NCBI GenBank assembly: GCA_000004985.1
Contig: GG739223.1
Direction: 5' to 3' (one strand)
Origin: Naegleria gruberi
Lineage: Eukaryota
Length of the DNA: 3,474 nucleotides
The notes beneath the pieces were generated by a model. The model was given only the letters and a program-made list of their open reading frames with translations. It was not told where the DNA came from and ran no database searches. Positions within the stretch are counted from its first letter, which is position 1. Each line of letters starts with the position of its first letter. Shown piece by piece: positions 1 through 3,474 of this stretch. A program made the translations under genes and the position numbers.

Positions 1-323
1 TCAACGATTTATTGATTAAGTTCCACCACCATTATGTTTCTCATACATTGTAGTACAGTTTATATTTCAAGAGTGATTTCTGTGTAGATTATTATAAATC
101 GTAATACTATTCAATACCATTAAAACTCAATAGAAGTCAATTCTTCTCATTTTCAAATAGATTATTCAATATAGAAACACATCTAGATAGTTTCCATATC
201 ATAAAAGTCAAGCTACTATATATGGTCTTTGATTAAATTTAAAAATAGACTGCCGTTGATTACTGGAATATTAATTCAAAGCTTGATGATCAAGTTATTG
301 ATTGAAAATCAAACCGATTATTG

Positions 324-358
324 AATATTGATTATTGAATTGGTGAATAATCAATATT
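324..358. repeat. Perfect 13-bp inverted repeat (aatattgattatt at 324-336, aataatcaatatt at 346-358) with a 9-nt spacer gaattggtg. Present in copy A only.
   Basis: The reverse complement of 346-358 equals 324-336. The corresponding region of copy B (about 2159-2196) is degraded by several substitutions. Confidence 0.7.
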
Positions 359-411
359 GATAATGTTACTTATTCATATTGCAAATCAACCAGATTCAAT
401 CTACAAAGGTT

Positions 412-442
412 GGTAGTTGCACCACTACGTGGCGAAACTACC
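412..442. repeat. Locally GC-rich imperfect hairpin in copy A. The outer stem is ggtagtt/aactacc (7 bp), the inner stem is ccac/gtgg, and the loop is tac.
   Basis: ggtagtt (412-418) is the reverse complement of aactacc (436-442). ccac (422-425) is the reverse complement of gtgg (429-432). An identical 50-bp block, 393-442, matches 2232-2281. Confidence 0.6.
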
Positions 443-895
443 ATTCCACGATCAATCAACATAAGAATCACTTCCATTCAACTCAATTTGACCGTTATAA
501 TCAATAAATCAATGAAATGTTCCTTTATTAGCAATACCTATTCAATCTAATCAGTAGATTCACGTCCCAAACATTTGACTTCTAAAAGTCCATAATTCAA
601 AAGTTAGTACTGACCTGACCTTTAAATATCTATCAATACAAGAAATGAAACCATCAAATTTACATCATTTATAGATGATAAGAAATATAATCAATGATAT
701 AAATCTTCACTAATTAATATATTAAATAACCCAAATAAATCAACTCTGAATCCTAACCAAACCTCTATGTTAGCGAAAGTACATCCAACCATCATGTAAC
801 TTTACCAGATACGTTTAATCACACTGATATACATCTGGAATCAATTTTAATGTTTTATAATTGAATTCAGTATGATAATAATATCAATCTGTCAA

Positions 896-2049
896 NNNNN
901 NNNNNNNNNNNNNNNNNNNNNNNNNNNNNNNNNNNNNNNNNNNNNNNNNNNNNNNNNNNNNNNNNNNNNNNNNNNNNNNNNNNNNNNNNNNNNNNNNNNN
1001 NNNNNNNNNNNNNNNNNNNNNNNNNNNNNNNNNNNNNNNNNNNNNNNNNNNNNNNNNNNNNNNNNNNNNNNNNNNNNNNNNNNNNNNNNNNNNNNNNNNN
1101 NNNNNNNNNNNNNNNNNNNNNNNNNNNNNNNNNNNNNNNNNNNNNNNNNNNNNNNNNNNNNNNNNNNNNNNNNNNNNNNNNNNNNNNNNNNNNNNNNNNN
1201 NNNNNNNNNNNNNNNNNNNNNNNNNNNNNNNNNNNNNNNNNNNNNNNNNNNNNNNNNNNNNNNNNNNNNNNNNNNNNNNNNNNNNNNNNNNNNNNNNNNN
1301 NNNNNNNNNNNNNNNNNNNNNNNNNNNNNNNNNNNNNNNNNNNNNNNNNNNNNNNNNNNNNNNNNNNNNNNNNNNNNNNNNNNNNNNNNNNNNNNNNNNN
1401 NNNNNNNNNNNNNNNNNNNNNNNNNNNNNNNNNNNNNNNNNNNNNNNNNNNNNNNNNNNNNNNNNNNNNNNNNNNNNNNNNNNNNNNNNNNNNNNNNNNN
1501 NNNNNNNNNNNNNNNNNNNNNNNNNNNNNNNNNNNNNNNNNNNNNNNNNNNNNNNNNNNNNNNNNNNNNNNNNNNNNNNNNNNNNNNNNNNNNNNNNNNN
1601 NNNNNNNNNNNNNNNNNNNNNNNNNNNNNNNNNNNNNNNNNNNNNNNNNNNNNNNNNNNNNNNNNNNNNNNNNNNNNNNNNNNNNNNNNNNNNNNNNNNN
1701 NNNNNNNNNNNNNNNNNNNNNNNNNNNNNNNNNNNNNNNNNNNNNNNNNNNNNNNNNNNNNNNNNNNNNNNNNNNNNNNNNNNNNNNNNNNNNNNNNNNN
1801 NNNNNNNNNNNNNNNNNNNNNNNNNNNNNNNNNNNNNNNNNNNNNNNNNNNNNNNNNNNNNNNNNNNNNNNNNNNNNNNNNNNNNNNNNNNNNNNNNNNN
1901 NNNNNNNNNNNNNNNNNNNNNNNNNNNNNNNNNNNNNNNNNNNNNNNNNNNNNNNNNNNNNNNNNNNNNNNNNNNNNNNNNNNNNNNNNNNNNNNNNNNN
2001 NNNNNNNNNNNNNNNNNNNNNNNNNNNNNNNNNNNNNNNNNNNNNNNNN
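896..2049. other. Assembly or scaffold gap, a run of 1,154 N. Its true length and content are unknown.
   Basis: Uninterrupted n characters from 896 to 2049. The ORF-track protein is poly-X across this span. Confidence 0.99.
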
Positions 2050-2250
2050 TACTATATATGGTCTTTGATTAAATTTAAAAATAGACTGCCGTTGATTACT
2101 GGAATATTAATTCAAAGCTTGATGATCATGCTATTGATTGAAATCAAACCGAATAATGAATATTGCTCATTGAATTGGTGAATAATCACTCTTGATAATG
2201 TTACTTATTCATATTGCATGCAAATCAACCTGATTCAATCTACAAAGGTT

Positions 2251-2281
2251 GGTAGTTGCACCACTACGTGGCGAAACTACC
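2251..2281. repeat. The same GC-rich imperfect hairpin in copy B.
   Basis: The sequence ggtagttgcaccactacgtggcgaaactacc is identical to 412-442. Confidence 0.6.
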
Positions 2282-2617
2282 CATCCACGATCAATCAACA
2301 TTAGATTCACTTCCATTCAACTCAATTTGACCGTTATAATCAATAAATCAATGAAATGTTACTTTATTAGCAATACATATTCAATCTAATGAGTAGATTC
2401 ACGTCCCAAACATTTGACTTGTAAAAGTCCATATTTCAAAAGTTGATACTGACCTGACCTTTATATATCTATCAATATAAGAAATGAAACCATCAAATTT
2501 ACATCATTAATAGATCATAAGAAATATAATCAATGATATGAATCTTCACTAAGTAATCTCTTAAATAACCCAAATAAATCAACTCTGAATCCTAACCAAA
2601 CCCAACTCCATTTTCAC

Positions 2618-2672
2618 TGAAATTGATATCATGATATGCAGACTCTCTAATTAGCCTATGATATCAATTTCA
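2618..2672. repeat. Inverted repeat with 15-bp perfect arms (tgaaattgatatcat at 2618-2632, atgatatcaatttca at 2658-2672) and a 25-bp spacer. It includes the 12-bp palindrome atatcatgatat (2626-2637).
   Basis: The reverse complement of 2658-2672 equals 2618-2632, read directly from the sequence. atatcatgatat is its own reverse complement. Confidence 0.85.
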
Positions 2673-2734
2673 TAAGTACTGGTTCAGTAGATGTCGAGAT
2701 GTCAACTCTATCACTATACTATAGAACTTTGACA

Positions 2735-2744
2735 TGATATCATA
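2735..2744. repeat. 10-bp palindrome atgatatcat. It is a third copy of the TGATATCA core (GATATC at 2736-2741).
   Basis: Self-reverse-complementary. GATATC is also present at 2625-2630 and 2660-2665. Confidence 0.8.
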
Positions 2745-3474
2745 GATTATGCTCCAACTCGCTCATTATACGTACAATCAATCTAGAATTGATACCAGAT
2801 AGAGTATACATCAATTAAGTATACTATATATAGTTTGGAAACAATTCGTATTACTTTCAATGAGTGAGTCAGTTAATGTTCAATGTCAATAGTGATTATA
2901 TCCAAGTGTACACTCTATCTCAGTGAAAGCATATCCAACCATCATGTAAGTTTACCAGATATGTTTAATCACACTATTGTATATATGGTATCAATTTTAG
3001 TCTGTTAGAATTGAATTCAGTATGATAATAATAACAATCTGTCAATTTGTCACATTTCAACATATAGAATATATACCATCTCAGTCAGTTTACAAAATAT
3101 AATACAAGTATCAAATATGAATACACTTCCCTTCATGAGGAGAACAATATGAGAAAGTTTCATATTCATGGCTCAATATGTTCAAGTCAACTAAGGAACA
3201 TCTAAGGTAATCAATGGGGAAGTATCTTAATTCCAAAATTAAATTTTACCATCATATCATAATCATTGAACAATGAATTATTTATGCAACAATAATATAT
3301 TCAATTGTCATATTCATGTCAGTAATCAGTGAAGGTGACACTTCTTCAGCCTTAGTATACACATCTCAATATGTAGACAGTCATTCCACTGAAACTTGAA
3401 ATATTACCTATCTAGATGATATAACGATGACTCTTCATAGTAACATGTATGTGAAATTGAATGTTGACACTTTT

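Follow-up and report, generated by a model that had tools for sequence, protein, structure and literature searches.

Layout of the window and similarity of the two copies

The stretch of GG739223.1 analysed here (the window, 3474 bases) consists of two contigs and the run of Ns between them, and it contains a pair of similar, non-coding sequences in the same orientation that face each other across the N run. One, copy A, closes contig A; the other, copy B, opens contig B (Table 1). The initial annotation had described them as two same-orientation copies, about 90-93% identical, of one repeat. We confirmed this by local alignment: copy A (214-895) and copy B (2050-3045) are identical at 635 of 681 aligned columns (93.2%), with a score of 957.5 compared to 31.6 +/- 3.5 for shuffled sequence. 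A separate repeat search of the window returned the same picture.

The alignment falls into four blocks, with identities of 97.8% (214-304 and 2050-2140), 91.9% (306-379 and 2141-2214), 94.8% (380-762 and 2219-2601) and 86.5% (763-895 and 2913-3045). The weakest of these, aligned on its own, scored 176 against a shuffled null of 23.7 +/- 3.1. Copy B carries 311 nt (2602-2912) and 4 nt (2215-2218) that copy A lacks, and copy A has a single extra nucleotide at 305. Because of these indels the distance between the copies, earlier given as a single offset of about 1.84 kb, is not constant: that value stands for the first 549 columns, where the offset is 1836, 1835 and 1839 nt, and gives way to 2150 nt in the remaining 133. 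Of the 46 mismatches, 15 are transitions and 31 transversions; many are tightly clustered, and divergence peaks in copy A at 765-864, where identity drops to 80-86%. Sequencing error as the source of the differences was ruled out, as there are 46 substitutions but no more than three indels, and one of these spans 311 nt. A degenerate (TATTGAA)n tract of about six units lies in copy A at 319-360 and is more decayed in copy B at 2153-2195; at 88% identity, this region is among the less conserved parts of the alignment.

Table 1. Coordinates of the contigs, copies, flanks and hairpin in the window
Feature	Position	Strand	Remarks
Contig A	1-895	+	Left of the N run
Left flank of contig A	1-213	+	No counterpart in contig B; partner positions 1837-2049 are N; non-coding
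Copy A	214-895	+	Final 682 nt of contig A; aligned to 2050-3045; ends at the last base before the N run
N run	896-2049	.	1154 N; scaffold gap or masked sequence; conceals the continuation of copy A and the sequence upstream of copy B
Contig B	2050-3474	+	Right of the N run
Copy B, first part	2050-2601	+	Opening 552 nt of contig B; matches 214-762 of contig A
311-nt segment	2602-2912	+	In contig B only; indel between the copies, from the alignment
Copy B, second part	2913-3045	+	Matches 763-895 of contig A at 86.5%; its end corresponds to that of contig A
Right flank of contig B	3046-3474	+	Runs beyond the point where contig A stops; partner in contig A is N; non-coding
Imperfect 33-nt hairpin GGTAGTTGCACCACTACGTGGCGAAACTACC	411-443, again at 2250-2282	+	Most G+C-rich stretch of the repeat

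We found no sign of a gene in either contig. The window contains no open reading frame (ORF) longer than 46 aa under translation table 11, and with the standard stops no stop-free frame exceeds 67 aa. None of the ciliate, Mycoplasma, TAG-recoded or TAA-recoded readings opens a gene-sized frame. With TAG as the sole stop, the longest frames are 271 aa (contig B) and 179 aa (contig A); we rejected these as genes, since TAG is scarce in DNA this AT-rich. The ten longest frames had no Pfam match above the cut-offs, the 67-aa frame had no relative among 5.8 billion proteins, and ten small ORFs were absent from the protein collection. Similarly, the window matched no Rfam family at E <= 1 and contains no tRNA or tmRNA, and Tandem Repeats Finder reported only short microsatellite-like tracts in it.

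Searches at the nucleotide level used as seeds two sequences of 23-24 nt, each identical in both copies. Neither had an exact match in the collections of genome and metagenome contigs, from which the window's own sequence is absent, and the first had none in the viral contig collection. By blastn there was no match to phages; against plasmids contig B had none, and contig A had only AT-rich matches of 49-67 nt with E values of at least 2e-3, which we treated as chance. The missing relatives in these collections are weak evidence against further copies, the source genome evidently lying outside them.

Composition is uniform across the window. G+C content is 28% in contig A and 30% in contig B, and both contigs and both flanks share a strand-asymmetric make-up (A 37-38%, T 33-34%, C 17%, G 11-13%), with the skew running in the same direction in the two contigs (A>T, C>G). 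The ratio of observed to expected CpG is 0.39-0.67; as a clue to the taxon this depletion is uninformative because GpC is similarly low (0.49-0.55). A gene-free stretch of 2.3 kb is unlike bacterial or phage DNA, and the window is therefore most simply viewed as eukaryotic non-coding DNA.

Geometry at the edges of the N run

The alignment of the two copies takes in contig B from its first base onward and contig A as far as its last, and thus forms a perfect suffix-prefix dovetail. It had been proposed that each copy is truncated exactly at the gap. Both copies do abut the N run; their outer limits, however, are no true repeat boundaries, because the partner sequence is simply N to the left of 214 and to the right of 3045. 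Accordingly, the repeat can be said to measure at least 0.7 kb. A dovetail of this kind is predicted without further assumptions by one sequence shared between the contigs or by tandem units in an array longer than the gap. The flanks lie outside the similarity. Aligned to contig B on both strands, the left flank scored 26 compared to a shuffled null of 25.8 +/- 3.2, and the right flank aligned to contig A scored 30 compared to 26.9 +/- 3.0. Neither flank has significant similarity to the other or to the opposite contig, which rules out a shorter concealed period.

The two facing edges differ in how well they match. The longest exact run of the alignment, 79 nt, is the opening of contig B (2050-2128, equal to 214-292), and the first mismatch falls at base 80. 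The next-longest runs are 54 and 50 nt, and all internal runs are 54 nt or shorter. A clean start of at least 79 nt is available from one of the 681 starting columns, or has a chance of about 0.4% if divergence is taken as uniform. By contrast, the last 79 nt of contig A (817-895) contain 11 mismatches to contig B, and the terminal match is confined to the final 11 nt. A de Bruijn-graph assembler emits a branch contig that starts k-1 bases before its first difference from the other contig. The 79-nt perfect start of contig B looks like such a k-1 overlap, with k near 80. This suggests that the start of contig B was set by the assembly graph and that contig B has no upstream sequence distinct from that of contig A. 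A start set in this way fits two versions of one locus, and it also fits a tandem repeat in which identity continues leftward.

An 8-nt periodic tract (CAATTTGT x 2.8) at 3035-3057 straddles position 3045, the counterpart in contig B of the end of contig A. If the tract varies in length, this may have contributed to contig A stopping where it does.

False duplication of one locus weighed against real duplication

We put at about even the chance that the duplication was made by the assembly, through the unmerged overlap of two variants of a single AT-rich non-coding locus of 1.3-1.6 kb. The suffix-to-prefix overlap, the pattern of differences and the lack of hallmarks of a gene, RNA or transposon are observed; the shared genomic position of the variants is what we infer. 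The two versions could be the alleles carried by one heterozygous individual, or variants that stem from a pool of individuals or strains. Substitutions at about 7% of positions and the 311-nt indel would have blocked their collapse by the assembler. One version would then have kept the left flank and become contig A (1-895), the other would have kept the right flank and become contig B (2050-3474), and the scaffolder would have set the two contigs end to end with an N run rather than overlapping them. Since internal exact runs do not exceed 54 nt, the two paths would be expected to stay separate at a k of about 80, and a bubble with a 311-nt indel is presumably hard to collapse. Flanks that lack similarity to the other contig are what a single locus of the form L-(a|b)-R predicts, and the uniform composition, with 28-30% G+C and the same excess of A over T and C over G, also speaks for false duplication.

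Artefacts of this kind have been described. Kelley & Salzberg (2010) defined "duplicated overlapping contigs" (DOC) as heterozygous sequence split over two contigs with homozygous sequence at their opposite ends; when set side by side, such contigs give the illusion of a duplication (PMC2864568). Their criteria were a dovetail alignment longer than 300 bp, lying within 300 bp of both facing contig ends, with identity above 95% (PMC2864568). Mate pairs identified as mis-assemblies 5,698 of 5,947, 13,159 of 13,571, 1,094 of 1,366 and 8 of 22 DOC pairs in four vertebrate assemblies, that is, most cases in three of the four, and 82% of the chimpanzee DOC alignments fell within 10 bp of contig ends (PMC2864568). 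Ko et al. (2022), who refer to the DOC-type case as "heterotype false duplication", regard a gap between copies on the same scaffold as a primary hallmark of false duplication (PMC9516828). Further defining signs of such a duplication come from reads: pair distances that fit better once the contigs are merged, about half the usual depth, and single-copy k-mers on each copy (PMC2864568, PMC9516828). The window resembles these cases in several respects. Its contigs are adjacent on one scaffold with a gap between them; the alignment covers 681 columns and lies 0 bp from the right end of contig A and 0 bp from the left end of contig B; unique sequence is present only on the outer side of each contig; and the copies differ by substitutions and indels such as distinguish alleles. 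It departs from them in its identity, 93.2% overall and 86.5%-97.8% by block, in the additional 311-nt indel, and in a gap of specific length rather than a minimal placeholder. With DOC pairs mostly being mis-assemblies in three of four assemblies, the balance tilts toward false haplotypic duplication.

Several findings weigh against an origin in assembly. The N run, at 1154, is not a conventional placeholder (10, 20, 50 or 100) and resembles an estimated positive distance. As a true overlap would imply an estimate of about -680 to -1000 nt, an artefact requires a gap error of about 1.8 kb, which imprecise large-insert links or a failed gap-filling step could explain. The identity of the copies is below the 95% cut-off of the DOC pipeline, although that cut-off is a practical threshold and not a biological limit. 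Divergence of 7% together with a 311-nt indel is extreme for alleles; it would require a hyperdiverse species, in which neutral diversity exceeds 5%, or else a local haplotype that is unusually divergent. Such diversity exists, reaching 16% in Caenorhabditis brenneri, 8% in Ciona savignyi and 13% in Schizophyllum commune (PMC8270832), and the loci left unmerged are by selection the most divergent ones. Finally, the 11 mismatches in the last 79 nt of contig A indicate that this contig stops before any clean re-convergence of the two paths. The gap length and the high divergence both point to a duplication that is real and has a period of about 1.84 kb.

The alternative to be taken most seriously, although we think it rather unlikely, is that the non-coding DNA is truly duplicated head to tail, or forms a macro-satellite, with a period no shorter than 1.84 kb. 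The period would be about 1.84 kb for a unit of the A type and about 2.15 kb for one of the B type with the 311-nt segment, and the junction would lie inside the N run, whose concealed 1154 nt would start with the counterpart of 3046-3474 and end with that of 1-213. There is room in the gap for both (429 and 213 nt), and 1154 looks like a measured positive distance that, combined with the coordinates, gives the 1836-nt period directly. Any tandem array with a period greater than the gap would by itself produce an alignment that stops at both gap edges, so that the geometry is explained equally well; divergence of about 7% and a 311-nt indel are unremarkable for old paralogous copies; and repeats are a common cause of assembly gaps. 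The same orientation of the copies, a roughly constant offset (1836-1839 nt) and AT-rich, non-coding sequence are likewise features of tandem repeats and macro-satellites. What is visible here, however, is two partial copies, with no third copy, junction, full unit or internal periodicity in the window, and a period that rests wholly on the length of the N run and jumps to 2150 nt after the indel. Exact runs of 79 nt or less should not by themselves break a modern assembly, and something else would have to account for the gap. The first difference comes after exactly 79 identical bases of contig B, for which a real duplication would require identity to extend further left. The collections searched hold no other copy, a weak argument given that the source genome is evidently not among them, and in published surveys most gap-adjacent dovetail pairs were false (PMC2864568).

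Two further readings fare worse. That the copies are complete direct repeats of a non-autonomous element, either ends of 682 and 996 nt resembling long terminal repeats (LTRs) or nearby dispersed copies, around 1154 nt or less of unassembled or masked sequence, is improbable. Two same-orientation copies do flank a short interval, much as direct repeats of 0.7-1.0 kb would in an LTR pair of the large retrotransposon derivative (LARD) or terminal-repeat retrotransposon in miniature (TRIM) type; the window is non-coding and AT-rich, as is much transposon-derived DNA; and ATCAAT motifs occur in excess. For LTRs, the outer boundaries would have to fall precisely at 214 and 3045, and the LTR pair failed both tests applied to it. 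The copies begin with TACTAT and end with GTCAA, giving termini TA...AA rather than the TG...CA of such elements, and the outer 5-mers, CAAGC (209-213) and TTTGT (3046-3050), do not form the target-site duplication of 4-6 bp expected there; GTCAA, the sole 5-mer shared within +/-6 nt of the limits, sits inside both copies. The inner ends would also have to fall exactly on both gap edges, which copies 93% identical give no reason to expect. The internal part, which in an LTR retrotransposon carries a primer-binding site, a polypurine tract and usually gag/pol, is N here and would be 1154 nt at most, too short for an autonomous element; the protein searches of the ten longest frames (Pfam) and of the 67-aa frame (protein collection) revealed no transposon remnant, and no further copies were found in the collections searched. 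The initial annotation held that the coincidence with the gap edges favours tandem or false haplotypic duplication over dispersed or LTR-like copies. This ranking survives, in that both favoured explanations predict an edge-bounded alignment and the LTR tests fail; the annotation mentioned neither the 311-nt indel nor that a non-default gap length of 1154 counts against false duplication. No more probable than LTR-like copies, and if anything less so, is that the N run overwrote real sequence of equal length through repeat hard-masking or a contaminant or vector screen, so that the 1836-nt offset is exact and the duplication real. The odd and specific count of 1154 N speaks for it, since overwriting preserves sequence length. 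On the other side, the window bears no independent sign of masking, the surrounding repeat is itself unmasked, and it would be a coincidence that the visible part of copy B opens with a 79-nt perfect run. To causes that we have not considered we assign the smallest probability of all.

The finding is ordinary under every reading and reveals no new genetic element: the window contains no gene, RNA family, mobile-element hallmark or unusual architecture. Its main relevance is to quality control of assemblies. If the duplication is false, the scaffold overstates the locus by about 1.8-2.1 kb, made up of a surplus copy of 682-996 nt and the 1154 N, and it hides real polymorphisms in the form of 46 substitutions, two small indels and one 311-nt indel. 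Artefacts of this type lead to repeats and duplications being overcounted. A real duplication would be an ordinary tandem duplication of non-coding DNA.

The 311-nt segment, the conserved hairpin and the ATCAAT motif

The 311-nt segment present only in copy B was considered as the insertion of a miniature inverted-repeat transposable element (MITE) or DNA transposon, and this was rejected. It has no terminal inverted repeats, and its junctions share no duplicated bases beyond 1-2 nt, leaving no target-site duplication. Nor does it resemble the rest of the window, against which it scored 25-28 compared to a shuffled null of 22.5 +/- 2.8. The one inverted repeat returned by a reverse-complement self-alignment is internal, a perfect 15-nt repeat with arms TGAAATTGATATCAT (2618-2632) and ATGATATCAATTTCA (2658-2672) separated by 25 nt.

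The 33-nt hairpin is identical in both copies and falls within a 50-nt exact run (393-442, equal to 2232-2281). In a 96-nt context it folds at -19.7 kcal/mol, with z-scores of -3.5 (+ strand) and -1.9 (- strand), and no Rfam family matches it. Counting both strands, the window contains 25 ATCAAT hexamers, where shuffled sequence would give 8.3 +/- 2.9. When redundancy is removed by keeping only the 213-nt left flank and contig B, the + strand has 10, compared to an expectation of 3.75. Most occurrences are on the + strand, with examples at 297-361, 451-513, 2290-2352 and 2777-2815. A weak gapped AT-rich match of the right flank (3242-3306) to the repeat (2324-2385) scored 37, compared to a maximum of 36 in shuffles, and is probably due to ATCAAT/TCAAT motifs common to both stretches.

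It is doubtful, though conceivable, that the window samples a real macro-satellite-like tandem repeat, with units of about 1.84-2.15 kb that carry the strictly conserved hairpin and an excess of ATCAAT, in a genome that is AT-rich and probably eukaryotic. In such a tandem repeat the hairpin could have a function, as a small RNA or a protein-binding site for instance, and be kept unchanged while the units diverge.

GC skew is negative over most of the window, turns positive in the first 100-150 nt or so of each copy, and is about zero around 2801-3000.

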